DNA from: Escherichia phage vB_EcoM_ECO78
DNA length: 64,000 nucleotides
Reading direction: 5' to 3' (one strand)
Sequence record: PP526941.1
The first letter of the stretch is position 1; each line of letters begins with the position of its first letter. The notes below the pieces were generated by a model, which saw nothing but the letters and a program-made list of their open reading frames with translations, did not search any database and had not been told where the DNA came from. This document shows, in pieces, positions 49,555 through 64,000 of the stretch. The position numbers were made by a program, and so were the translations under genes.

Positions 49555-50472
49555 TCAAAATTCATTAATGCTATTAGTTAATTTAGAAAGACCCGCTTTT
49601 ACAAAATATGAATAAATTTTGCCACGCGGTGGTAATTTATATGAATTATAGTAATTCACAATGTTTGAAGCAATATTATCAGGAATATAATCAAAATCAA
49701 TTAGAACTAAATTTTCTTTATAACGATTATATTCAGATTCTGTGAGAAGCACCTTAGCTTGCTCACGGTCATTAGCAATAGCTTCAACGATTGAAGTTTT
49801 CATTGAAGGAGTTCGTTCACCTTCAACTCTGGTAAACCAAAAGTCAGATCGTACTTTAACTGAAGCAACGTTATCCTTTTTGTCGCCTTTAAGGATTTTA
49901 GTCATACAGTCAATTTCAGCAGAACCGCTTTTAATTTTAACCCATTTCTTATGCATCGGTGACCATTGCTTAACATTTGGATATTTGTGAAGCTGTGTAA
50001 AGTCACCATCCGACGAAATGATTAAAATCTTATGTCCTTCTAAAGAGAACTTTTTAACAAGAACAGCAATGTGGTCATCTGCTTCATACTTATCAATATC
50101 CATAACAATGTATGGCATATAAGCTTTCAATTCATCTATAACTTTATGGCTGGATTCAAAATAACCTTCCCAGTCCCAAGTAGATTCTTCTCGTGCTTTT
50201 CCACGGTTTTTCTTATAATAATACGCAAAATCACGACGCCAATATCCAGATTTCGCGTTATCAATACACAACACGATTTTAGTGTATCCAAGCGTTTTTG
50301 CTTTTTTGACATTAAACTTAATTGAGTTCAATATCAAATGACGAACCATTGATAAATTAATTTTTTCTTTATCTGGGAAGTTTACTAAAGCAGTTGAAAG
50401 CGCAATTTGACTAAAGTCAATAAAGCAAATTCCCTCTTTGTAATCTTCATCCAGCATCATTTCTAAATCCAT
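49555..50472 (-). CDS. rnh: RNase H (5'-3' exonuclease/flap endonuclease)
   Basis: 305 aa from the ATG at 50472 with GAGG SD (the ORF track start is a TTG); FEN-family acidic clusters. Confidence 0.92.
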   Translation of the reverse strand: MDLEMMLDEDYKEGICFIDFSQIALSTALVNFPDKEKINLSMVRHLILNSIKFNVKKAKTLGYTKIVLCIDNAKSGYWRRDFAYYYKKNRGKAREESTWDWEGYFESSHKVIDELKAYMPYIVMDIDKYEADDHIAVLVKKFSLEGHKILIISSDGDFTQLHKYPNVKQWSPMHKKWVKIKSGSAEIDCMTKILKGDKKDNVASVKVRSDFWFTRVEGERTPSMKTSIVEAIANDREQAKVLLTESEYNRYKENLVLIDFDYIPDNIASNIVNYYNSYKLPPRGKIYSYFVKAGLSKLTNSINEF

Positions 50473-50534
50473 ATGAACCTCGTTCAATTAGTGAGATTTC
50501 TATTATATACCATCCGAATCTTAAAGTAAACAAG

Positions 50535-50542
50535 TATAAATA
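50535..50542 (+). promoter_or_regulatory. T4-type late promoter (TATAAATA) for gene 34
   Basis: Exact TATAAATA 35 nt upstream of the gene 34 ATG. Confidence 0.6.
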
Positions 50543-50576
50543 CTTATTATTGAAAACACAATAGGAGCCCGGGAGA

Positions 50577-53500
50577 ATGGCCGAGATTAAAAGAAAGTTC
50601 AGAGCAGAAGATGGTCTGGACGCAGGTGGTGATAAAATAATCAACGTAGCTTTAGCTGATCGTACCGTAGGAACTGACGGTGTTAACGTTGATTACTTAA
50701 TTCAAGAAAACACAGTTCAACAATATGATCCAACTCGTGGATATTTAAAAGATTTTGTAATCATTTATGATAACCGCTTTTGGGCTGCTATAAATGATAT
50801 TCCAAAACCAGCAGGAGCTTTTAATAGCGGACGCTGGAGAGCATTACGTACGGACGCAAACTGGATTACAGTCTCATCTGGTTCATATCAATTAAAATCC
50901 GGTGAAGCTATTTCGGTTAACACTGCAGCTGGTAATGACATCACGTTTACTTTACCATCTTCTCCAATTGATGGTGATACTATCGTTCTCCAAGATATTG
51001 GAGGAAAACCTGGAGTTAACCAAGTTTTAATTGTAGCTCCAGTGCAAAGTATTGTAAACTTCAGAGGTGAACAAGTACGTTCAGTACTAATGACTCATCC
51101 AAAGTCACAGCTAGTTTTAATTTTTAGTAATCGTCTGTGGCAAATGTATGTTGCTGATTATAGTAGAGAAGCTATAGTTGTAACACCAGCGAATACTTAT
51201 CAAGCGCAATCAAATGATTTTATCGTACGTAGATTTACTTCTGCTGCACCGATAAATATTAAACTTCCACGATTTGCTAATCATGGCGATATTATTAATT
51301 TCGTTGATTTAGATAAACTAAATCCACTTTATCATACAATTGTTACTACATACGATGAAACGACTTCAGTACAAGAAGTTGGAACTCATTCCATTGAAGG
51401 CCGTACAACGATTGACGGTTTCTTGATGTTTGATGATAATGAGAAATTGTGGAGATTGTTTGACGGGGATAGTAAAGCGCGTTTACGTATCATAACGACT
51501 AATTCTAATATTCGTCCAAATGAAGAAGTTATGGTATTTGGTGCGAATAACGGAACAGCTCAGACAATTGAGCTTAAGCTTCCAACTAATATTTCTGTTG
51601 GTGATACTGTTAAAATTTCCATGAATTACATGAGAAAAGGACAAACAGTTAAAATCAAAGCTGCTGATGAAGATAAAATTGCTTCTTCAGTTCAATTGCT
51701 GCAATTCCCAAAACGCTCAGAATATCCACCTGAAGCTGAATGGGTTACAGTCCAAGAATTAGTTTTTAATGGTGAAACTAATTATGTTCCAGTTTTAGAG
51801 CTTGCTTATATAGAAGATTCTGATGGAAAATACTGGGTTGTACAGCAAAATGTTCCAACCGTAGAAAGAGTTGATTCTTTGAATGATTCTACTAGAGCAA
51901 GATTAGGCGTAATTGCTTTAGCTACACAAGCCCAAGCTAATGTCGATTTAGAAAATTCTCCGCAAAAAGAATTAGCAATTACTCCAGAAACATTAGCTAA
52001 CCGTACTGCTACTGAAACTCGCAGAGGTATTGCAAGAATAGCAACTACTGCTCAAGTGAATCAGAACACCACATTCTCTTTTGCTGACGATATTATCATC
52101 ACTCCTAAAAAGCTGAATGAAAGAACTGCTACAGAAACTCGCAGAGGTGTTGCTGAAATTGCTACGCAACAGGAAACTAATGCAGGAACCGATGATACTA
52201 CAATCATCACTCCTAAAAAGCTTCAAGCTCGTCAAGGTTCTGAATCATTATCTGGTATCGTAACTTTTGTATCTACTGCAGGTGCTACTCCAGCTTCTAG
52301 CCGTGAATTAAATGGTACGAATGTTTATAATAAAAACACTAATAATTTAGTTGTTTCACCTAAAGCTTTGGATCAGTATAAAGCTACTCCAACACAGCAA
52401 GGTGCAGTAATTTTAGCAGTTGAAAGTGAAGTAATTGCTGGACAAAGTCAGGAAGGATGGGCAAATGCAGTTGTAACGCCAGAAACGTTACATAAAAAGA
52501 CATCAACTGATGGAAGAATTGGTTTAATTGAAATTGCTACGCAAAGTGAAGTTAATACAGGAACTGATTATACTCGTGCAGTCACTCCTAAAACTTTAAA
52601 TGACCGTAGAGCAACTGAAAGTTTAAGTGGTATAGCTGAAATTGCTACACAAGTTGAATTCGACGCAGGCGTCGACGATACTCGTATCTCTACACCATTA
52701 AAAATTAAAACCAGATTTAATAGTACTGATCGTACTTCTGTTGTTGCTCTATCTGGATTAGTTGAATCAGGAACTCTCTGGGACCATTATACCCTTAATA
52801 TTCTTGAAGCAAATGAGACACAACGTGGTACACTTCGTGTAGCTACACAAGTTGAAGCTGCTGCAGGAACATTAGATAATGTTTTAATAACTCCTAAAAA
52901 GCTTTTAGGTACTAAATCTACCGAATCGCAAGAAGGTGTTATTAAAGTTGCAACACAGTCTGAAACTGTGACTGGAACGTCAGCAAATACTGCTGTATCT
53001 CCAAAAAATTTAAAGTGGATTGTGCAGAGTGAACCAACATGGGCTGCTACTACGGCGATAAGAGGGTTTGTTAAAACTTCATCTGGTTCAATTACATTCG
53101 TTGGTAATGATACAGTCGGTTCTACACAGGACTTAGAGTTATACGAGAAAAATAATTATGCAGTATCACCATATGAATTAAACCGCGTACTTGCTAACTA
53201 TTTGCCATTGAAAGCAAAAGCTGCAGATAGTAATTTATTGGATGGTCTAGATTCATCTCAGTTCATTCGTAGGGATATTGCCCAGACAGTTAATGGTTCA
53301 CTAACCTTAACCCAACAAACGAATCTGAGTGCCCCTCTTGTATCATCTAGTACTGCTACGTTTGGTGGTTCAGTTTCGGCAAATAGTACATTAACTATTT
53401 CTAACTCTGGAACAGCAACTCGTCTGATTTTTGAGAAAGGACCTCAAACTGGAACTAATCCAGCGCAGACGATGACTATCAGAGTTTGGGGAAATCAGTT

Positions 53501-54446
53501 TGGCGGCGGATCAGATACAACACGTTCTACTGTATTTGAAGTTGGTGATGAAACGTCTAATCATTTTTATTCTCAACGTAATAAAGCTGGTAATATAACG
53601 TTTAGCATTAATGGTACTGTGATGCCAATAAATGTTAACGCTTCAGGCACGTTGAATGCGAATGGCGTTGCAACATTCGGTCGTTCAGTTACAGCCAATG
53701 GTGAATTCATTAGCAAGTCTGCAAATGCTTTTAGAGCAATTAGTGGTGATTACGGATTCTTTATTCGTAATGATGCTGCTAATACCTATTTTATGCTCAC
53801 TGCATCCGGTGATCAGACTGGCGGATTTAATGGATTACGTCCTTTGGCTATTAATAATGCATCTGGCCAAGTAACGATTGGTGAAAGCTTAATCATTGCC
53901 AAAGGTGCTACTATAAATTCAGGTGGTTTGACTGTTAACTCGAGAATTCGTTCTCAGGGTAATAAAACATCTGATTTATATACCCGTGCACCAACATCTG
54001 ATACAGTAGGATTCTGGTCAATTGATATTAATGATTCAGCTACTTATAACCAGTTCCCAGGTTATTTTAAAATGGTTGAAAAAACTAATGAAGTGACTGG
54101 ACTTCCATACTTAGAACGTGGCGAAGAAGTTAAATCTCCTGGTACACTGACTCAGTTTGGTAATACACTTGATTCGCTTTACCAAGATTGGATTACTTAT
54201 CCAACGACGCCAGAAGCACGTACCACTCGCTGGACACGTACATGGCAGAAAACCAAAAACTCTTGGTCAAGTTTTGTTCAGGTATTTGACGGAGGTAACC
54301 CTCCTCAACCATCTGATATCGGTGCTTTACCATCTGATAATGCTACAATGGGAAATCTTACTATTCGTGATTTCTTACGAATTGGTAATGTTCGCATTGT
54401 TCCTGACCCAGTGAATAAAACGGTTAAATTTGAATGGGTTGAATAA
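50577..54446 (+). CDS. 34: long tail fibre proximal subunit gp34
   Basis: 1289 aa, the T4 gp34 length; repetitive beta-rich fibre sequence; synteny. Confidence 0.95.
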   Translation: MAEIKRKFRAEDGLDAGGDKIINVALADRTVGTDGVNVDYLIQENTVQQYDPTRGYLKDFVIIYDNRFWAAINDIPKPAGAFNSGRWRALRTDANWITVSSGSYQLKSGEAISVNTAAGNDITFTLPSSPIDGDTIVLQDIGGKPGVNQVLIVAPVQSIVNFRGEQVRSVLMTHPKSQLVLIFSNRLWQMYVADYSREAIVVTPANTYQAQSNDFIVRRFTSAAPINIKLPRFANHGDIINFVDLDKLNPLYHTIVTTYDETTSVQEVGTHSIEGRTTIDGFLMFDDNEKLWRLFDGDSKARLRIITTNSNIRPNEEVMVFGANNGTAQTIELKLPTNISVGDTVKISMNYMRKGQTVKIKAADEDKIASSVQLLQFPKRSEYPPEAEWVTVQELVFNGETNYVPVLELAYIEDSDGKYWVVQQNVPTVERVDSLNDSTRARLGVIALATQAQANVDLENSPQKELAITPETLANRTATETRRGIARIATTAQVNQNTTFSFADDIIITPKKLNERTATETRRGVAEIATQQETNAGTDDTTIITPKKLQARQGSESLSGIVTFVSTAGATPASSRELNGTNVYNKNTNNLVVSPKALDQYKATPTQQGAVILAVESEVIAGQSQEGWANAVVTPETLHKKTSTDGRIGLIEIATQSEVNTGTDYTRAVTPKTLNDRRATESLSGIAEIATQVEFDAGVDDTRISTPLKIKTRFNSTDRTSVVALSGLVESGTLWDHYTLNILEANETQRGTLRVATQVEAAAGTLDNVLITPKKLLGTKSTESQEGVIKVATQSETVTGTSANTAVSPKNLKWIVQSEPTWAATTAIRGFVKTSSGSITFVGNDTVGSTQDLELYEKNNYAVSPYELNRVLANYLPLKAKAADSNLLDGLDSSQFIRRDIAQTVNGSLTLTQQTNLSAPLVSSSTATFGGSVSANSTLTISNSGTATRLIFEKGPQTGTNPAQTMTIRVWGNQFGGGSDTTRSTVFEVGDETSNHFYSQRNKAGNITFSINGTVMPINVNASGTLNANGVATFGRSVTANGEFISKSANAFRAISGDYGFFIRNDAANTYFMLTASGDQTGGFNGLRPLAINNASGQVTIGESLIIAKGATINSGGLTVNSRIRSQGNKTSDLYTRAPTSDTVGFWSIDINDSATYNQFPGYFKMVEKTNEVTGLPYLERGEEVKSPGTLTQFGNTLDSLYQDWITYPTTPEARTTRWTRTWQKTKNSWSSFVQVFDGGNPPQPSDIGALPSDNATMGNLTIRDFLRIGNVRIVPDPVNKTVKFEWVE

Positions 54447-54454
54447 GAGGTATT

Positions 54455-55570
54455 ATGGAAAAATTTATGGCAGAGTTTGGACAAGGATATGTCCAAACGC
54501 CGTTTTTATCGGAAAGCAATTCAGTAAGATATAAAATAAGCATAGCGGGTTCTTGCCCGCTTTCTACTGCAGGGCCATACGTTAAATTTCAAGATAATCC
54601 TGTAGGAAGTCAAACATTTAGCGCAGGTCTTCATTTAAGAGTTTTTGATCCTTCCACAGGAGCATTAGTTGATAGTAAGTCATATGCTTTTTCTACTTCA
54701 AATGATACTACATCAGCTGCTTTTGTTAGTTTCATGAATTCTTTGACGAATAATCGAATTGTTGCTATATTAACTAACGGAAAGGTTAATTTTCCTCCTG
54801 AAGTAGTATCTTGGTTAAGAACCGCCGGAACGTCTGCTTTTCCATCTGATTCTATATTGTCAAGATTCGACGTATCATATGCTGCTTTTTATACTTCTTC
54901 TAAAAGAGCTATCGCATTAGAGCATGTTAAACTGAGTAATAGAAAAAGCACAGATGATTATCAAACTATTTTAGATGTAGTATTTGACAGTTTAGAAGAT
55001 GTCGGAGCTACAGGATTTCCAAGAAGAACGTATGAAAGCGTTGAGCAATTTATGTCAGCTGTTGGTGGAACTAATAACGAAATTGCGCGTCTACCAACTT
55101 CAGCTGCTATAAGTAAATTATCTGATTATAATTTAATTCCTGGTGATGTTCTTTATCTTAAAGCTCAGTTATATGCTGATGCTGATTTACTTGCACTTGG
55201 AACTACGAATATATCCATTCGATTTTATAATGCATCAAATGGATATATTTCCTCGACACATGCTGAATTTACTGGGCAAGCTGGGTCATGGGAATTAAAG
55301 GAAGATTATGTAGTTGTTCCAGAAAACGCAGTAGGATTTACGATATACGCACAGAGAACTGCACAAGCTGGCCAAGGTGGCATGAGAAATTTAAGCTTTT
55401 CTGAAGTATCAAGAAATGGCGGCATTTCAAAACCCGCTGAATTTGGCGTCAACGGTATTCGAGTTAATTATATCTGTGAATCTGCTTCACCTCCGGATAT
55501 AATGGTACTTCCTACACAAGCATCGTCTAAAACTGGTAAAGTGTTTGGGCAAGAATTTAGAGAAGTATAA
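54455..55570 (+). CDS. 35: long tail fibre hinge (knee) protein gp35
   Basis: 371 aa; synteny; AGAGG SD. Confidence 0.9.
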   Translation: MEKFMAEFGQGYVQTPFLSESNSVRYKISIAGSCPLSTAGPYVKFQDNPVGSQTFSAGLHLRVFDPSTGALVDSKSYAFSTSNDTTSAAFVSFMNSLTNNRIVAILTNGKVNFPPEVVSWLRTAGTSAFPSDSILSRFDVSYAAFYTSSKRAIALEHVKLSNRKSTDDYQTILDVVFDSLEDVGATGFPRRTYESVEQFMSAVGGTNNEIARLPTSAAISKLSDYNLIPGDVLYLKAQLYADADLLALGTTNISIRFYNASNGYISSTHAEFTGQAGSWELKEDYVVVPENAVGFTIYAQRTAQAGQGGMRNLSFSEVSRNGGISKPAEFGVNGIRVNYICESASPPDIMVLPTQASSKTGKVFGQEFREV

Positions 55571-55575
55571 ATTGA

Positions 55576-55593
55576 GGGAGCCTTCGGGTTCCC
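55576..55593 (+). terminator. rho-independent terminator after gene 35
   Basis: GGGAGCC-UUCG-GGUUCCC followed by UUUUUCUUUAU. Confidence 0.6.
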
Positions 55594-55601
55594 TTTTTCT
55601 T

Positions 55602-55609
55602 TATAAATA
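55602..55609 (+). promoter_or_regulatory. T4-type late promoter (TATAAATA) for genes 36-37-38
   Basis: Exact TATAAATA 24 nt upstream of the gene 36 ATG. Confidence 0.6.
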
Positions 55610-55632
55610 CTATTAAAATAAAGGGGCATACA

Positions 55633-56295
55633 ATGGCTGATTTAAAAGTAGGTTCAACAACCGGGGGCTCTGTCATTTGGCATCAAGGAAATTTTCCATT
55701 GAATCCAGCCGGTGACGATGTACTCTATAAATCATTTAAAATATATTCAGAATATAATAAACCACAAGCTGCTGATAACGATTTCGTTTCTAAAGCTAAT
55801 GGTGGTACTTACGCCGCGACTGTTCGATTTAATGGAGGCGTACATGTTCCTACTATAGGTAGTAGTCAACAGTGTGGTGTTTATCCAGGTAACGGTGATG
55901 CAGCTACTTTTGCTATGGCAAATATTGACATCGTTTCGTGGAATGGTATTGGTTTTAAATCATCACAAGGTTCAGCAGACCGAACTGTTGTAATTAACGC
56001 TCGTACCGGTGATATCAGCAGTAAGGGCGGTTTTTATGCAACTGGTCCTGTCCGTTCTAACGCTACTGCTCCGGTTGCAGCAAATGACCTTACTAGAAAG
56101 GACTATGTTGATGGAGCAATAAATACTGTTACGGAAAATGCGAACTCTAGAGTGTTACGATCTGGCGACACTATGACGGGTAACTTAACCGCACCAAATT
56201 TTTTCTCGCAGAATCCTGCGTCTCAACCTTCACACGTTCCACGATTTGACCAAATCGTAATTAAGGATTCTGTTCAAGATTTCGGCTATTATTAA
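55633..56295 (+). CDS. 36: long tail fibre distal connector gp36
   Basis: 220 aa; synteny. Confidence 0.9.
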
Positions 56296-56303
56296 GAGGA
56301 CTT

Positions 56304-59300
56304 ATGGCTACTTTAAAACAAATACAATTTAAAAGAAGCAAAACCGCAGGTGCACGTCCTGCTGCTTCAGTATTAGCCGAAGGTGAATTGGCTATAAACT
56401 TAAAAGATAGAACACTTTTTACTAAAGATGATTCGGGAAATATCATTGATCTAGGTATTGCTAAAGGCGGTCAAATTGATGGAAATGTGACTATCAATGG
56501 TCTTTTAAGATTAAATGGGGATTATACACAAACTGGTGGAATGACCGTAAATGGACCTATTGGTTCTACTGAAGGCGTATCCGCCTTAGTTTTTAGATCT
56601 ATGCGAGGGTCATTTTACGCAAGAGCAACAAATGATACTTCCAATGCCCATCTTTGGTTTGAAAATACAAATGGATCAGAGAGAGGGGTTTTATATTCAA
56701 AACCACAGTCTGAAAATGAAGGCGTAATTACAATGCGTGTTCGTCAAGGAACCGCTGCGGGAGCTCAAAATTCAGAATTTCATTTCATTTCTACTGATGG
56801 CGGTATCTTCCAGGCACGCAAATTAACTGCTTTAACTTCTATTAGTACACCAACTATTAGTGTTAATTTAATTAATCATGATTCTAAAGCCTTTGGACAA
56901 TACGATTCGCAATCATTAGTTCAGTATGTTTATCCTGGAACTGGTGAAACTAACGGAGTAAACTATCTTCGTAAAGTTCGAGCTAAATCAGGTGGCACTA
57001 TGTGGCATGAGCTTTGTACTGCTCAGACTGGCCAGGCTGATGAAATGTCTTGGTGGACAGGTAATACTCCATCATCTAAACAATATGGCATTCGTAATGA
57101 CGGACGAATGGCAGGCCGTAATAGCCTTGCATTAGGTACATTCACTACGGGTTTCCCGTCTAGTGATTATGGTAACGTCGGTGTAATGGGCGATAAGTAT
57201 CTTGTTCTCGGTGACACTGTAACCGGTCTGAAATATATTAAGCAAGGTGTTTATGATTTAGTTGGTGGAGGTTATTCCGTTGCATCTGTTACTCCAGATA
57301 GTTTCCGTAGTACTCGTAAAGGTATATTTGGTCGCTCAGAAGACCAAGGTGCTACATGGAACATGCCTGGAAACAACGCCGCGTTTTTATCGGTTCAAAC
57401 ACAAGCTGATGAAAACACTGCTGGAGACGGCCAGACACATATTGGCTATAACTCAGGCGGTAAAATGAACCACTATTTCCGTGGTAAAGGCAAAACTAAT
57501 ATTAATACTCAAGAAGGCATGGAAGTTAACCCGGGTATTCTTAAACTAGTAACCGGTGCTAACAGTATTAGCTTTAACGCTGCAACAGGTAATATTGATT
57601 CTACATTAGCTTTTCGTCTTAATAAAGGTATAATTATTGATGGACCTGATAATCAGGGATTCCAATTTAATGCTCCGACGGCTGTAGATGGTACTAGAAG
57701 CATATACTGGAATAGTGGCACTCGCGCAGGTCAAAACAAAAACCCTGTTACAGTTAAAGTGTGGGGTAATTCATTTAACGCATCTGGTGATCGTAGTCGT
57801 GAAACCGTTTTTGAAGTAGCTGATGGGCAAGGTTACCATTTTTATTCTCAACGCGTAGCTCCTGCACCTGGTTCGACTGTCGGGCCTATTCAACTCCGAG
57901 TTAATGGTGGTTTATTAACTTCTGGTGGTATTACTGCTTCCGGTTCTATTGTTACTGAATCAAGTTTAGTTGCAAATAATGGATTATCTGTAAATGGTCA
58001 GGCTAAATTTGGCGGAACAGCAAACGCACTAAGAATTTGGAACGCTGAATATGGTGCTATTTTCCGTCGTTCGGAAAGTAACTTTTATATTATTCCAACC
58101 AATCAAAACGAAGGCGAAAGCGGAGACATTCACAGCTCTTTGAGACCTGTGAGAATAGGATTAAACGATGGCATGGTTGGGTTAGGAAGAGATTCTTTTA
58201 TAGTAGATCAAAATAATGCTTTAACTACTATAAACAGTAACTCTCGCATTAATGCCAACTTTAGAATGCAATTAGGACAAAATGCTTATATAGATATTGA
58301 GGCTTCTGATGGAATTCGCCCAACAGGTTGTGGTTCCTTTGCATCTCAGAATGACGTAAACGTCAGAGCTCCAATTTATATGAATATAGAGCGTACTGCT
58401 ACTTCTGAATATATTCCTATTGTTAAACAGCGTTATGTGCAAGGTGATAGCACTTATTCTATTGGGACATTAATTAATCAAGGAGATTTCCGTGTTCATT
58501 ACCGCCAAGGCACCGGTACGGGTGGCACTGATTTGAGTTGGGAATTCCGTCGCACAGGCGATTTCCGCGCGGCAGGTAAAATTATTGCTGGTGCTGCTAC
58601 TCTTGGCACTGATGGTAATATCACCGGTGGTTCTGGTAACTTTGCTAACCTGAATACCACATTAAATCGTAAGGTAAATTCCGGATTTGTAACATACGGT
58701 GCAACGGCCGGATGGTACAAATTCGCTACAGTAACGATGCCACAATCTACTTCTACTGTTTCATTTACTATAACTGGTGGTAAAGGATTTAATACCGGAC
58801 TGTTTACACAATGTGCTATAACAGAAATTGTTCTTCGTACTGGTAATGACCGCCCAGCAGGTTTAAACGCCGTGATGTATACCAGAACAGCGGCAGGTCT
58901 TACTGATATTGCTGTAGTTAATACCTCAGGAAATACATATGATGTCTATGTTGAAGCTGGCACTTATGCCAACCAATTAGCTTATACCTGGCATACAGTT
59001 GATAATGCTACCGTAGAAGTTATTGGCGCTTTTGGTCCTACTCAAGACCCGGTAGATTCTTTGCCGGCTAATTATGTTAAAGGCCAAGTAGCTAACATGC
59101 TTAACAACCTGGTAGACACAGGTAAAGTAAAACGTTATGTAGCAGATTCTGAAATTGCTATTAATAACCAAACGGGTCTTCGTATTACGAGTAATTATGA
59201 TAGATCAGGTTCTAATTCCGTTTTGTTTCGAAATGACGGTGGAAGCTTCTATATTTTACTGACTGACAAAAACTCTTCAGACGGCGATAATAAAGCAACT

Positions 59301-60227
59301 GAAGGTGATTGGAATGGAAAACGACCATTTTCAATTGATATGACTGCTGGTACTGTTCGTCTTGGCGAAAATACTTCTTTTAGTAAAGATGTTACTATTG
59401 ATGGAAACATTAATTCACGAGTTAAAGTTGTCGGACAGTGGAATGTTAGCTTTTCTGATATTTCAGATGTGACTCGTGACCGTTCTGCATTTTTAGTGAA
59501 TACGGGTGGCATTTCCAATACAAGTCAATCTTATTACCCGCTATTTTCTGGATACAGTTTTTTAACTGACGCGGGTTATCGCCAATCGTTTGAATTTGGA
59601 TGGTTAGGTGTTTCTGGTACTTGGCGTCAAGGTATTATTCGCATGCGTGGTGACAACGCATCGGGGCAACAGGCTCGTTGGACTTTTGATATGGATGGAA
59701 CATTTTATGCTCCTAAATTGGCTTGCGGTTCTACCGGTGCCCTCGGTATTAACACATCCAACGGATGGGGTGGTAACTCAATTGCAATTGGTGATAGCGA
59801 TACTGGTTTTAGACAAGTAGGCGATGGGCTTTTAGAAGCGTGGGCGAACAACGTTAAAGTTGTTAGATTCACTTCGAGCGAAGTTTATTCCGAGAAAAAC
59901 GTCAATGCTCCTAACGTTTATATTCGTTCTGATGTTCGCTTGAAATCTAATTTTAAACCTATTAAAAATGCGCTCGAAAGGGTTGAGCAACTTGATGGTT
60001 TAATCTATGACAAAGCTGAATATATAGGCGGTGAACCTGTTCAAACTGAAGCGGGTATTATAGCTCAAACGTTACAAGACGTTTTACCAGAAGCTGTCCG
60101 TGAATCAGAAGATAGCAAGGGTAATAAAATACTCACTGTTTCTTCTCAAGCCCAGATTGCTCTTCTGGTTGAAGCTGTGAAAACACTTTCTGCTCGTGTA
60201 AAAGAACTTGAATCTAAACTTATGTAA
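56304..60227 (+). CDS. 37: long tail fibre distal subunit gp37, T2-type, with C-terminal intramolecular chaperone domain
   Basis: 1307 aa; conserved N-terminus; C-terminal about 99 aa begin with the SDxRLK motif typical of autocleaving intramolecular chaperone (S74-like) domains. Confidence 0.9.
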
Positions 60228-60228
60228 A

Positions 60229-60246
60229 AGAGGGCTTCGGCCCTCT
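60229..60246 (+). terminator. GC hairpin (AGAGGGC-UUCG-GCCCUCU) between genes 37 and 38
   Basis: Perfect 7-bp stem with UUCG loop followed by AAGGAUUUUUA, which contains the gene 38 SD. Confidence 0.45.
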
Positions 60247-60257
60247 AAGGATTTTTA

Positions 60258-61043
60258 ATGGCAATTGTAGGTGTTCCTGGCTGGATTGGTGAATCTGCTG
60301 TGAATGAAACTGGACAACGTTGGATGGATGCTGCGATGAAAGCTGTTCGTGTTTCAGTTCCCGGCTGGATGAGCTCAATGGCTGGACAATCTAAAGAAAT
60401 TCATTATAGCATTGGTGCTAGCAATTCTTACAATAAAGACACTCTTATTAACTGGATGAAAGCACAGGGGTCTACTCCGGTAGTAATTACTATTACAGGA
60501 AATATTGTTTCTTCATCGACAGGTCAACCATGCTTAGATTTTCCTAGCTCATTAACTAATGCATACGTGACACTTAATATCAATTCAGGCGTGCATGTTT
60601 GGGGTCGCGGCGGGAATGGTGGAAATAACTCTGCTGGCGGAGCAGGAGGAACTGCAATAAATAACGGAATTGGAACTAGATTACGTATTAATAACAATGG
60701 TGTTATCGCAGGCGGCGGTGGCGGCGGTGGCGGCGGATACTACTCTCCTTTTTCACAAATGAGATTGACTTTTGGTGGAGGAGGCGGTCGTCCATTTGGT
60801 GCGGCTGGCGGGTCTGCTAATATGGAACAGGGTGCTACTGCTGGTACTATTTCTGCGCCCGGTAAAGGGTCTGTCAACGGTATCTATAATGGCGGGAATG
60901 GTGGTGATGCCGGTGCCGCAGGAGGTAAATGTAATATTCGCGGTCAAGGATCAGAATATAATGGCGGCGCTGCTGGTAAAGCTGTTACTGGTAATGCTCC
61001 AACTTGGACTAAAGTTGGTACAATATATGGTGCAAGAGTATAA
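60258..61043 (+). CDS. 38: T2-type receptor-recognising adhesin gp38 (glycine-rich motifs)
   Basis: 261 aa; C-terminal half built from glycine-rich tracts (GRGGNGGNNSAGGAGG, GGGGGGGGGY, FGGGGGRPFGAAGG, NGGNGGDAGAAGG) separated by short variable segments. Confidence 0.85.
   Translation: MAIVGVPGWIGESAVNETGQRWMDAAMKAVRVSVPGWMSSMAGQSKEIHYSIGASNSYNKDTLINWMKAQGSTPVVITITGNIVSSSTGQPCLDFPSSLTNAYVTLNINSGVHVWGRGGNGGNNSAGGAGGTAINNGIGTRLRINNNGVIAGGGGGGGGGYYSPFSQMRLTFGGGGGRPFGAAGGSANMEQGATAGTISAPGKGSVNGIYNGGNGGDAGAAGGKCNIRGQGSEYNGGAAGKAVTGNAPTWTKVGTIYGARV
60711..60737 (+). repeat. 9-bp tandem repeat (GGCGGCGGT x3) encoding a poly-glycine tract in gp38
   Basis: Three consecutive near-identical 9-mers read directly in the sequence. 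Confidence 0.8.
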
Positions 61044-61074
61044 TTTTGAATAAATATCCTTAAAAGGAGGGTCT

Positions 61075-61731
61075 ATGGCAGCACCTAGAATATCATTTTC
61101 GCCCTCTGATATTCTGTTGGGTGTTCTAGATCGCTTGTTCAAAGATAACGCTACCGGGAAGGTTCTTGCTTCCCGGGTAGCTGTCGTAATTCTTTTGTTT
61201 ATGATGGCGATTGTTTGGTATAGGGGAGATAGTTTCTTTGAGTACTATAAGCAATCAAAGTATGAAACATACAGTGAAATTATTGAAAAGGAAAGAAATG
61301 CACGCTTTGAATCTGTCGCCCTGGAACAACTCCAGATAGTTCATATATCATCTGAGGCAGACTTTAGTGCGGTGTATTCTTTCCGCCCTAAAAACTTAAA
61401 CTATTTTGTTGATATTATAGCATATGAAGGAAAATTACCTTCAACAATAAGTGAAAAATCACTTGGAGGATATCCTGTTGATAAAACTATGGATGAATAT
61501 ACAGTTCATTTAAATGGACGTCATTATTATTCCAACTCAAAATTTGCTTTTTTACCAACTAAAAAGCCTACTCCTGAAATAAATTACATGTACAGTTGTC
61601 CATATTTTAATTTGGATAATATCTATGCTGGAACGATAACCATGTACTGGTATAGAAATGATCATATAAGTAATGACCGCCTTGAATCAATATGTTCTCA
61701 GGCGGCCAGAATATTAGGAAGGGCTAAATAA
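61075..61731 (+). CDS. t: holin T
   Basis: 218 aa; N-terminal TM segment and large periplasmic domain; sequence recognised as the T4-type holin; AAAGGAGG SD. Confidence 0.92.
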   Translation: MAAPRISFSPSDILLGVLDRLFKDNATGKVLASRVAVVILLFMMAIVWYRGDSFFEYYKQSKYETYSEIIEKERNARFESVALEQLQIVHISSEADFSAVYSFRPKNLNYFVDIIAYEGKLPSTISEKSLGGYPVDKTMDEYTVHLNGRHYYSNSKFAFLPTKKPTPEINYMYSCPYFNLDNIYAGTITMYWYRNDHISNDRLESICSQAARILGRAK

Positions 61732-62004
61732 TTATTTGTTTGTATACATCTCTAGATATCGATATACACCCTCAAAACCCTCGTTGAATTCGTCGATGAG
61801 GGTTTTCTTATCTTCTTGAGTTAATTCAGAAACAATTTTACGGAATGAATTTTGATTTAACTTTCTACCTTCATGTGTTACTCCAATCTCATTCAGAAAT
61901 GCAATAAAATTAGCGCGATTCTCAACAATATCTTCTCGGGAAAATTTAATCAAAATAGACGCAACAGTAATAATTTCACGAACTGTATCAATGTTTTTAT
62001 TCAT
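61732..62004 (-). CDS. asiA: anti-sigma-70 factor AsiA
   Basis: 90 aa; N-terminus MNKNIDTVREIITVASILIKFSREDIVENRANFIAFLNEIG recognised as AsiA; convergent with t. Confidence 0.88.
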   Translation of the reverse strand: MNKNIDTVREIITVASILIKFSREDIVENRANFIAFLNEIGVTHEGRKLNQNSFRKIVSELTQEDKKTLIDEFNEGFEGVYRYLEMYTNK

Positions 62005-62016
62005 TAACTATACCAC

Positions 62017-62169
62017 TCAATTAGTTGACTTTGTTATAATATCATCAGACGCTTGATTTGTAAACTGGTCTGTGTTATTTTCTTCAAAAATTTTTTCTAC
62101 GAATTCCTTGAACGACTTACGTTCCTGAGCTACATTGTGCTCGATTACCTTTTCAAGATTATGACTCAT
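62017..62169 (-). CDS. small hypothetical protein (50 aa), ATGA-coupled to the upstream ORF; not in the supplied ORF track
   Basis: Hand translation MSHNLEKVIEHNVAQERKSFKEFVEKIFEENNTDQFTNQASDDIITKSTN; its ATG overlaps the stop of the 92-aa ORF. Confidence 0.4.
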   Translation of the reverse strand: MSHNLEKVIEHNVAQERKSFKEFVEKIFEENNTDQFTNQASDDIITKSTN

Positions 62170-62444
62170 TCGAAATAATCTTCAATTTCATAATCATGGA
62201 CATAAATCATTATAGTTTTTAATACATCATCGATACTTTTTCCTGGAGCTGGAATTACGTAGAAATATCCTGCTTTTGAGAGGTCTTTATAAGTTCCAAT
62301 CAAGAAATCATTATTCTCGAGATGTAGTTCTTCAACTAATTCATTAACAATTGAGTGGTATAAATTTGGTAGAAACTTATATAGCTTTTCTAGAATATCA
62401 ATTTTGATTGTGTATTGAACCACAGACTGAGAATCAATAATCAT
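62166..62444 (-). CDS. arn: probable Arn (anti-restriction nuclease, McrBC inhibitor)
   Basis: 92 aa acidic protein adjacent to asiA; assignment by length and synteny. Confidence 0.55.
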   Translation of the reverse strand: MIIDSQSVVQYTIKIDILEKLYKFLPNLYHSIVNELVEELHLENNDFLIGTYKDLSKAGYFYVIPAPGKSIDDVLKTIMIYVHDYEIEDYFE

Positions 62445-62527
62445 AGACCTTCCCCTTGTGTTTCTGTTTGCGATTAGATTCTTTAAACGCTTTCTTCTTA
62501 TCCTTATGAACAGAAGCTTTATTAAAA

Positions 62528-62746
62528 TTATGTTTTGCGACTAAATTGTTCATAGTGCTGAATTACCTCTCTTAAACATTTGCATGTGAATGAAAACTTT
62601 TTAGCTACACCACATTCAAATATATGTTCTCTTAAATCACGTGTATCGGTATATCCCATCTCAACAATAAAATGCCGTATTAGATTTTTATCTTTATCGT
62701 TAAGAGAATTAAAATAATCGGATTTTGAATTAATTTCCCTGGCCAA
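62528..62746 (-). CDS. hypothetical protein
   Basis: 72-aa ORF; Cys/His-containing (CGVAKKFSFTCKC). Confidence 0.45.
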   Translation of the reverse strand: MAREINSKSDYFNSLNDKDKNLIRHFIVEMGYTDTRDLREHIFECGVAKKFSFTCKCLREVIQHYEQFSRKT

Positions 62747-63026
62747 ATTGAATCACCTTCAGTTGACGTTTTAGTTCTTTTATCATTTCTTCGTTCATCG
62801 CAATATAAAGATCGCGTAAAGCAGGTTTTAGCATTCCATTTATTGGGGAACTAAATGGACATACATAATCTTTTCCTACGAGCTTTTTGGTGAATTCCAT
62901 ATTACAGAATTGAAATGCCGGTTCATTGGTATAAATTCCCCAATTAGTTGACATCATTTTATTAGCATATTCCAGTGCCTGGATTTGATTCGTAATTCCA
63001 TCAATTTGAAACTTTTTAATATTCAT
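62730..63026 (-). CDS. hypothetical protein
   Basis: 98-aa ORF. Confidence 0.45.
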   Translation of the reverse strand: MNIKKFQIDGITNQIQALEYANKMMSTNWGIYTNEPAFQFCNMEFTKKLVGKDYVCPFSSPINGMLKPALRDLYIAMNEEMIKELKRQLKVIQFGQGN

Positions 63027-63487
63027 TAGTAAAGGTCCTCAGAGTAAAGTTCTTTTTCACTACCACCACGTTCAATACGTACTTGTCCAGCGTAAGTTGC
63101 AATAATCATTGCTTCTTCACGTGTCCAATAATTACTATATTGGTCAATAAATCCTTGGTCATCATCACAAACTTGCTGAGTAACTAATTGAGGTTTAACT
63201 ACATCTAAAACTTCTGCCATATCTTTAGAATAATGACGAGCACCTGGAATAATAAGAGTTCGTCCATCTTTTAATTTAAAACGGTTGGCTGCGCAAACAA
63301 TTCGTCGTTGATACTTTTGGTTTTCATCCCAGTACGCAGTCTGCCAACAAATTTCAGGAACTTCTTTCAGAATATCTTCTTCTGTGCATTTATAACCATG
63401 TGCTTTAAATTTTTGAACAAGACTTTCTGGAGTCTCACGAGATAAAGGAACATTCAACATTTTTAAACGATTAATAAATGGGTTCAT
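63026..63487 (-). CDS. hypothetical protein
   Basis: 153-aa ORF, ATGA-coupled. Confidence 0.5.
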
Positions 63488-63813
63488 TTAAACCATCCTT
63501 TAATACGCTGCCACAAAGTTTTCTGCTGAGTTTTGTTAACACCAATTGAACGAATAACTGGTTGAGATTCCTGGAATTCTTTATAATCGGCAAGGTAAAT
63601 TTCGTAAGCTGCATCCGTAAATGAACTTATCGCTGCCATAAAATTATTGCGAATACCTACTGGAGCATCTTTACTTTCACGAATAATCATGTATTTACCA
63701 GTCTTAATCTTTACGATAGTTCCAAGATAAGCTCCATGGTACCAAATATCCCAACCCTCTTGAGTAGGTTCTGCGCAACGACGAAGTTCATTAACAATTT
63801 CTAACTTGTTCAT
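63484..63813 (-). CDS. hypothetical protein
   Basis: 109-aa ORF. Confidence 0.5.
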
Positions 63814-63823
63814 TATTTATTCC

Positions 63824-64000
63824 TCACAGTTCAGATGCTACGGTGATTACTGCTTCAATGTTTTCTGCCGAGCGTTTAATGTCAAGATACACATTACCGT
63901 TTTTAGCGATTTTACATGACATTCCGATGTCAGTAAATTTCTGAATATGATGTTCCATCATTTTATATCCAAAAATTCGCATATTTCCATTGTTGTTAAT
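63824..64000 (-). CDS. 3' end of a gene continuing beyond the window; possibly the C-terminus of MotA
   Basis: Open minus-strand frame to the window edge ending ...NGNVYLDIKRSAENIEAVITVASEL; MotA suggested only by synteny (asiA-arn-...-motA) and weak recollection. Confidence 0.35.
   Translation of the reverse strand: MNNNGNMRIFGYKMMEHHIQKFTDIGMSCKIAKNGNVYLDIKRSAENIEAVITVASEL

Follow-up and report, generated by a model that had tools for sequence, protein, structure and literature searches.

The open reading frame at 60258–61043 of the 64,000-nucleotide stretch of Escherichia phage vB_EcoM_ECO78 DNA analysed here (PP526941.1; hereafter the window) is a T2-type gp38 adhesin, and all testable features of that family were found in it. 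The overall explanation that very probably fits is a Tsx-type gp38 tip adhesin in which a run of nine glycines (Gly9) serves as a core helix, with the tract not acting as a variation device.

Gene 38 is flanked directly by gene 37 upstream, which encodes a protein with a predicted chaperone domain at its C-terminus, and by the holin gene t downstream, giving the canonical gene order 37-38-t. The features of this part of the window are as follows:

56304–60227, plus strand: gene 37, distal long-tail-fibre subunit, 1307 aa (Pfam Gp34_trimer and Peptidase_S74; labelled gp37 in relatives)
59928–60224, plus strand: predicted gp37 C-terminal intramolecular chaperone, aa 1209–1307 (Peptidase_S74 at aa 1209–1266)
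60229–60246, plus strand: GC-rich hairpin with a UUCG loop between genes 37 and 38, a terminator-like match
60258–61043, plus strand: gene 38, open reading frame from ATG to TAA (stop included), 261 aa, T2-type receptor-recognising adhesin
60258–60383, plus strand: N-terminal attachment domain of gp38, aa 1–42, predicted to dock on the cleaved gp37 trimer tip (Gp38_N match)
61075–61731, plus strand: gene t (holin), 218 aa (Pfam Phage_holin_T, 2.4e-117)

The Gp34_trimer match in gp37 is a fibre repeat and the Peptidase_S74 match is a C-terminal 'chaperone of endosialidase' domain. The motif NVYIR/SD is present in gp37, with its V at aa 1205, and gp37 is predicted to be cut after R1208 (...NVYIR1208), which would release the chaperone and expose the docking face for gp38. 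The corresponding DVYIR^SD cleavage site in the fPS phages was inferred there by alignment with S16. The hairpin at 60229–60246 has a folding energy of -13.4 kcal/mol (z = -2.2) and is followed immediately by an AAGGA Shine-Dalgarno sequence (60247–60251); in phage NR1 the hairpin between genes 37 and 38 is annotated as a terminator. Overlapping minus-strand open reading frames (e.g., 60524–60697 and 60753–60947) were short, Pro/Ala-rich mirrors of the glycine codons and were rejected as spurious. The sole match in an Rfam scan of 60000–61300 was a chance lncRNA (E = 0.8), and the open reading frame list together with the Rfam scan gave no further feature on either strand of the gene 38 region.

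Both Pfam models of the family scored above their curated cut-offs. PF05268 (GP38; 6.9e-72) matched with 242.3 bits against a cut-off of 25 over profile positions 1–218, its full length, and PF21721 (Gp38_N; 7.2e-18) matched with 64.8 bits against a cut-off of 25, covering aa 1–42. The protein also matched PHROG 2056, 'tail fiber protein; host specificity' (5e-104), and a phmmer search against solved structures returned the gp38 of S16 (6f45_D; 1.9e-48) and the receptor-binding domain of PP01 gp38 (9v85; 1.4e-31). An AlphaFold2 model built with 83 homologues had a mean pLDDT of 93.5 and a pTM of 0.87. When this model was used in a Foldseek search, 6f45_D (E 3.2e-21; TM 0.79/0.83) and 9v85_C (E 7.4e-20) were recovered, and nothing significant was found beyond these two structures. 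At the level of the fold, the model and the Foldseek matches gave the three domains of the family: a helical attachment domain, a beta-helix and a polyglycine-II sandwich. The attachment domain contains helices at residues 10–18, 23–29 and 38–41 in the model, and its Trp9, Trp22 and Trp37 align with the tryptophans of S16 gp38, with W9 and W22 at least 90% conserved among the 83 homologues. In the S16 crystal structure the gp38 tryptophans insert into pockets of gp37.

Of the 146 residues at 116–261, 49 are glycine (34%), compared to 11 of the 115 residues before them, and glycine runs lie at residues 118–131, 152–160, 173–177, 184–185, 212–223 and 236–237. Five conserved glycine-rich blocks stand in fixed order with four hypervariable segments (HVS1–4) between them, as in the published gp38 architecture of glycine-rich motifs alternating with hypervariable segments. 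Family, fold and glycine content thus agree with the first-pass annotation, which had described a T2-type gp38 adhesin with a glycine-rich C-terminal half and variable segments. Its placing of receptor specificity in those segments likewise agrees with published structures and receptor studies; in S16 and PP01 the variable segments are turns at the distal end, the site of receptor binding. The blocks and segments discussed below are listed here, with block borders assigned in this analysis from alignments:

60603–60623, plus strand: Gly block 1 (GRGGNGG, aa 116–122), with G116, R117, G118 and G119 invariant among 83 homologues
60711–60737, plus strand: Gly9 tract, aa 152–160, GGC GGC GGT in 2.9 copies, predicted central polyglycine-II (PGII) helix of the PGII sandwich
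60738–60773, plus strand: HVS2 (YYSPFSQMRLTF, aa 161–172), predicted distal beta-hairpin loop with a T6-type sequence
60774–60800, plus strand: Gly block 3 (GGGGGRPFG, aa 173–181), with G176, G177, P179 and G181 invariant and G174, G175, R178 and F180 at least 90% conserved
60801–60890, plus strand: HVS3 region, aa 182–211, variable loops with small glycine motifs embedded
60891–60926, plus strand: Gly block 4 (GGNGGDAGAAGG, aa 212–223), with conserved columns G213, G215, G216, G219 and G222
60927–60962, plus strand: HVS4 (KCNIRGQGSEYN, aa 224–235), with a T6-type identity pattern
60963–60992, plus strand: Gly block 5 (GGAAGKAVTG, aa 236–245), with G237 invariant and A239, G240, A242, V243 and G245 at least 90% conserved, leading back into the beta-helix

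In the model HVS2 forms a hairpin with strands at 160–165 and 168–173, and its equivalent in PP01 gp38, loop B, is essential. The HVS3 region has 100% identity to Bas39, JK38 and IME339 and 77% identity to T6, compared to 15–26% for the T2, FL34, PP01 and M1 adhesins. HVS4 has 100% identity to Bas39 and JK38 and 83–92% identity to T6 and WilhelmHis, compared to 0–25% for the same four adhesins; its equivalent in PP01 gp38, loop E, provides the principal contact with OmpC.

The tract at 60711–60737 had been described as a perfect 9-bp repeat in three copies. Its in-frame reading is GGC GGC GGT twice followed by GGC GGC GGA, which encodes nine consecutive glycines (residues 152–160), so the in-frame polyglycine coding held. 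The perfection did not, since the third unit ends in A (60737) instead of T and 26 of 27 bases fit; Tandem Repeats Finder reported one array, 60711–60736, with period 9 and 2.9 copies. With Gly9 held fixed and codons drawn at random, a period-9 pattern this regular came up in 1.4% of cases when the draws followed the glycine codon usage of the gene (P = 0.014) and in 6% when they followed the GGC/GGT-dominated usage of the tract in relatives, and when a period of 3, 6 or 9 was allowed such regularity occurred in 9% of draws. Given nine glycine codons, the 9-bp periodicity does not clearly exceed what chance would give. Because the pattern arises at these frequencies (1.4–6%) once Gly9 is fixed, the DNA repeat appears to be largely the result of using GGC and GGT codons for polyglycine.

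Residues 152–160 align with S16 151-GGGGGGGG-158. In the S16 structure that stretch, named helix 3, is a polyglycine-II helix at the centre of a 'polyglycine sandwich' of three layers; it lies in a buried core with its backbone bonded to all neighbouring helices in a saturating hydrogen-bond network. From the S16 alignment and this description of helix 3, the Gly9 tract is predicted to be the conserved central PGII helix, part of the structural core and therefore not a variable element, a placement based on the S16 sequence alignment and the overall fold match.

Tract length was compared across relatives drawn from a phage collection and from Logan/ENA contigs, with a scan of IMG/VR giving four distant loci only. 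All 29 phage records with at least 88.7% nucleotide identity aligned without gaps in a single alignment (1–786 on a 786-bp span), and the 12 full-length sequences read in the gene's own 90% cluster all had nine glycines. Length polymorphism among near-identical genes, the test of a contingency repeat, was therefore seen in 0 of 29 and 0 of 12. In six larger clusters, one of about 75 full-length members read had a shorter tract. Exactly nine glycines were found in 58 of the 101 cluster representatives that have both long glycine runs, and no full-unit expansion of the tract was seen among these 101. Where inspected, the 7-Gly form followed by AGA (slur07/Phaginator type) covers an equal residue span up to the variable segment. 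The synonymous codon strings for the nine glycines differ from that of ECO78 in NR1, Bas39, Sf24 and JoYop; the GGC GGC GGT unit is shared with JLBYU22, IME339 and RB49 and is missing from NR1, Sf24, JoYop and Bas39. Because the glycine count is fixed while the synonymous codons vary, the constant tract length on drifting DNA is, as read from these alignments, the signature of a protein-level constraint. In T6, viable phages with a whole individual glycine-rich motif deleted (GRM2, 3 or 4), or with variable segments deleted, were never recovered.

Two clean contractions were found. The tract of P0009 (L021) has exactly 9 bp fewer than that of P0003 (L022), with 98.5% nucleotide identity elsewhere, and P0022 (L024) has lost one GGTGGTGGC unit compared to P0012 (L025), with 98.9% nucleotide identity; P0022 sits on a 162-kb, phage-sized contig. 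Other tract variants in relatives were of -5, -2 and +1 Gly. These length variants are singletons or nearly so, compared to nine-Gly clusters that reach 298 sequences. The AlphaFold2 model of the 6-Gly variant P0009 kept the fold but lost the HVS2 hairpin, with confidence in the tract and HVS2 falling to 82 and 77 compared to 98 and 85; AlphaFold2 is not a stability predictor and this model is weak support. Of the suggestion that the repeat could expand or contract in frame, contraction is thus documented by the two 9-bp losses, full-unit expansion is not, and a role in variation is at odds with the fixed length. We read contraction as mutationally possible and usually selected against, rather than as a mechanism the phage relies on, and the existence of contraction variants, one of them on the 162-kb contig, indicates that shorter tracts may be tolerated in some backgrounds.

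Alleles of gp38 with a contraction or a duplication are rare but do circulate in relatives. The two long glycine tracts of the ECO78 gene have direct repeats of about 6–7 nt in common by eye, and no shared repeat of at least 9 nt was found between them; because the shared repeats are this short, the HVS2 duplication or deletion of relatives is less likely here. The idea that indels favour multiples of three Gly, which would preserve the register, was also considered and rejected, the sizes -3, -3, -2, -5 and +1 showing no clear preference.

The specificity domain (residues 116–261) has 100% identity to that of IME339, and Bas39 and JK38 differ from it only by R169K and A259S. R169K is the only loop difference from these two phages, and R169 is also present in T6, WilhelmHis and RB7, all of them Tsx phages. 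HVS2 matches that of WilhelmHis and RB7 exactly and differs by one residue from that of T6, Bas39 and JK38. Across HVS1–4, identity was 92–100% to Bas39 and JK38 and 57–100% to T6, WilhelmHis and RB7, compared to 0–57% to the T2 (FadL/OmpF), FL34 (OmpF), PP01 (OmpC) and M1 (OmpA) adhesins, whose HVS2–4 have 0–26% identity to ours. The variable-segment set is therefore the one common to adhesins of phages measured to need Tsx. Bas39 has been shown to be Tsx-dependent by plating on knockouts (BASEL supplementary table) and by tsx as a top RB-TnSeq hit, and JK38 by tsx among the top RB-TnSeq hits. For the gp38-Tsx complexes of these two phages, AlphaFold3 models in a 2026 preprint had an ipTM of 0.62–0.63. 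Three independent studies concluded that variable-segment similarity of gp38 predicts the receptor. Because the loops are identical or nearly so to those of Tsx-dependent phages, the E. coli nucleoside channel Tsx is, by homology, very likely the primary receptor. The earlier view that the receptor could not be assigned from sequence is not sustained, given a specificity domain identical to that of IME339 and two positions from those of the Tsx-dependent Bas39 and JK38.

A receptor other than Tsx, or other than Tsx alone, with OmpA or LPS as candidates, is nevertheless a minor possibility to be weighed; it would arise from the small differences to the characterised relatives or from an influence of the N-terminal half. 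PST differs from T6 by few residues in its T6-type variable segments and yet gains OmpA, which it needs too, and infects Yersinia; in RB68 a single substitution, Q206L, moves the receptor from OmpF to OmpW; and fPS-65, which has a T6-type gp38, gave only LPS-heptose resistant mutants in Yersinia. The ECO78 protein also carries K28, I48, H49 and M67, which are missing in its closest relatives. These differences fall in the attachment and beta-helix parts of the model, which would place them away from the distal loops, whereas the four variable segments are all identical to IME339 and R169 is the residue of the Tsx phages T6, WilhelmHis and RB7, so we consider a different or additional primary receptor unlikely. 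A far weaker case can be made for gp38 acting as an assembly chaperone of gp37 only, outside the virion, as in T4. The gene has the number and position of T4 gene 38 and some homologues are labelled 'distal long tail fiber assembly catalyst' or 'tail assembly protein', but these labels were carried over by legacy annotation transfer, the literature describes T4 gp38 as a protein of unrelated sequence, and gp37 carries its own intramolecular chaperone domain. No similarity to T4 gp38 or lambda Tfa-type chaperones was found, a Pfam scan at E <= 0.01 giving the two adhesin families (PF05268 and PF21721) only, and the fold is that of the S16 and PP01 adhesins. As far as homology can tell, the adhesin families and the matches to solved adhesins exclude the chaperone-only role, which the first-pass annotation had named as its refuting case, and we regard that role as vanishingly improbable.

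The glycine tract itself could be a slippage-prone contingency repeat, in which 9-bp gains and losses alter the neighbouring loop and produce frequent host-range variants. The near-perfect array of 2.9 units, the two relatives that independently differ by 9 bp from near-identical parents (98.5% and 98.9%), the further variants of -2, -5 and +1 Gly, and the 162-kb contig of P0022, which suggests a viable phage, are all in keeping with this reading. Against it stand the uniform length in the 29 closest phage genes and the 12 own-cluster members, the singleton status of the variants beside clusters of up to 298 nine-Gly sequences, the lack of full-unit expansion, a periodicity that is not clearly significant given Gly9, and the buried position of the equivalent helix in S16. 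Whole-GRM deletions in T6 are not viable, the 6-Gly model of P0009 loses local confidence and its HVS2 hairpin, and in-frame changes could not work as an on/off switch. We consider a contingency repeat highly improbable. A polyglycine-II helix completes a turn with every three glycines, the number that one 9-bp unit encodes. Whole-unit slippage might then resize the central helix without a change of register and re-seat HVS2, a rare heritable retuning of the receptor that the two independent natural -9-bp variants would exemplify; we hold this to be a very remote prospect too. The preferred reading remains a Tsx-type tip adhesin with Gly9 as a core helix under length constraint.

On this preferred reading, a Tequatrovirus long tail fibre would be capped by a gp38 monomer. 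Judging by the structures solved for S16 and PP01, gp37 would trimerise and its C-terminal chaperone domain would then be cut off, predicted here after R1208, whereupon the N-terminal helical domain of gp38 would dock on the gp37 tip via Trp9, Trp22 and Trp37. The middle of gp38 is predicted to form a small beta-helix, with two excursions forming the polyglycine-II sandwich from the glycine-rich blocks. Gly9 (aa 152–160) would be the load-bearing central helix, as backbone hydrogen bonds to all neighbours are possible with glycine only, and the variable segments would be far-tip loops of T6 type touching the receptor. Replication slippage or short-homology deletion may remove units, as in rare relatives, with selection keeping nine glycines, and host-range change in the gp38 family proceeds by point mutations in the variable segments and by their recombinational swapping.

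Published work already covers the protein family, its fold, what the glycine blocks and loops do and which receptor near-identical proteins use, and nothing here changes current understanding beyond the practical Tsx prediction, which is useful for phage cocktail design and for anticipating resistance via tsx loss. A mildly useful comparative point is that the length of the polyglycine core helix is under constraint in nature even though the DNA that encodes it is able to slip.

Among known systems, the closest are the gp38 proteins of Bas39 (FriedrichMiescher, MZ501066), JK38 (MK962755) and vB_EcoM_IME339 (MH051915), which are also 261 aa long, 97–98% identical, encoded in the same gene order and have nine glycines in the tract. 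The exact ECO78 gp38 sequence was absent from a collection of 15 billion proteins; relative to these three its N-terminal half carries four to six substitutions (K28, I48, H49, M67, S86, Q90), and it differs from Bas39 and JK38 also by R169 instead of K in HVS2 and A259 instead of S. Alignment with T6, T2 and other gp38 proteins, as had been proposed, gave T6-type variable segments joined to a T2-like N-terminus. T6 gp38, the archetypal Tsx adhesin, has the same variable-segment set and Gly9 tract, as do RB7 and WilhelmHis (Bas35), with 92–100% identity in HVS2, 83–92% in HVS4 and 79–81% over the C-terminal domain, compared to only 46–47% over the N-terminal 115 residues. The T2-like N-terminus of ECO78 gp38 is suited to another gp37 tip than that of T6. 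T2 gp38 (FadL/OmpF) shares the architecture and has a near-identical attachment domain, whereas its variable segments are unrelated (0–23% in HVS2–4) and its tract is seven glycines and an alanine.

At the nucleotide level, the first 135 nt of gene 38 have 93–95% identity to T2, nt 151–225 (aa 51–75) have 95% identity to RB49, nt 451–735 have 66–91% identity to T6-type genes, and the gene from nt 511 on has 82–93% identity to a Krischvirus gene; the DNA encoding residues 51–85 is closest to RB49-type genes. Modular shuffling of gp38 has been described previously, and this apparent mosaic fits that pattern and is not new. The structurally characterised gp38 proteins of S16 (6F45 chain D) and PP01 (9V85) have 41–43% identity to that of ECO78 and share its three-domain fold, PGII sandwich, tryptophan triad and long central glycine helix, which has eight glycines in S16 compared to nine here, whereas their loops differ and bind OmpC.

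A tandem duplication of the hypervariable segment HVS2 (aa 161-172 in the window's gp38) together with the next Gly block was found in the T6-type gp38 genes of two relatives, which code for proteins of 277-278 aa:

L003, 1501-2331: gp38 gene (IMGVR_UViG_2974787500) with HVS2 and Gly block duplicated
P0159, QNJ50602.1: gp38 of Yersinia phage PYps47T with HVS2 and Gly block duplicated

In both, the duplicated unit is YYSPFSQMRLTFGGGGG, present twice, and the L003 junction lies inside a 14-nt stretch, GGCGGTGGCGGCGG, common to both Gly tracts. Judged from these sequences, the duplication looks like an unequal exchange between Gly-coding repeats. Two further gp38 homologues, the Logan singletons P0100 and P0110, lack HVS2 altogether and have the two Gly tracts fused, giving AGGGG(GG)RPFGA; these would be the reciprocal product of the duplication seen in L003 and P0159. 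Gene 38 of the window itself carries an exact 14-nt direct repeat, GGCGGGAATGGTGG, with copies 282 bp apart that code for GGNGG:

60609-60622, + strand: first copy, in Gly block 1
60891-60904, + strand: second copy, in Gly block 4

An exchange between the two copies would delete 94 codons.

Two features were located upstream of these repeats, one near the end of gene 37 (distal long-tail-fibre subunit) and one between genes 37 and 38:

59916-59933, + strand: VYIR|SD motif of gp37 (aa 1205-1210)
60229-60246, + strand: GC-rich hairpin of seven pairs with a UUCG tetraloop (-13.4 kcal/mol, z = -2.2)

Because the VYIR|SD motif stands immediately N-terminal to the S74 chaperone domain, release of a 99-aa C-terminal fragment from gp37 is predicted. 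The hairpin is positioned directly 3' of the gene 37 stop and just 5' of the gene 38 Shine-Dalgarno sequence; the phage NR1 record labels the hairpin between genes 37 and 38 a terminator.

Over positions 50000-64000 (the 14-kb tail-fibre region), the August 2025 collection contained no phage record above ~94% nucleotide identity, and the exact gp38 protein was not found in a large collection of 15 billion proteins, so the window comes from a Tequatrovirus with no identical representative in the collections searched.

Homologues of gp38 were also present in other genomic settings:

L028, 6001-7347: gp38 homologue region on a 95.9-kb contig (cluster of P0040)
L029, 2720-3502: gp38 adhesin homologue, ~71% identical (cluster of P0031)

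The P0040 cluster includes many contigs of ~220-226 kb in Salmonella Enteritidis assemblies. At L028, a 1493-aa fibre protein with an S74 chaperone domain precedes the gp38 homologue, which is followed by a second ORF (167 aa) whose sole match is the Gp38_N attachment domain and which could encode a second, unrelated tip protein sharing gp38's dock. The P0031 cluster holds 298 member sequences, for the most part out of assembled genomes of Shigella sonnei and E. coli, with several listed contigs of ~108-113 kb. The L029 homologue adjoins TacA/acetyltransferase toxin-antitoxin-like, ParA-like and DnaB-like genes, and its setting resembles a plasmid-prophage more than it does a T-even phage. The L029 HVS2 is of the NRGRL type and closely matches that of the OmpA phage FL18 (NRGKLIF).
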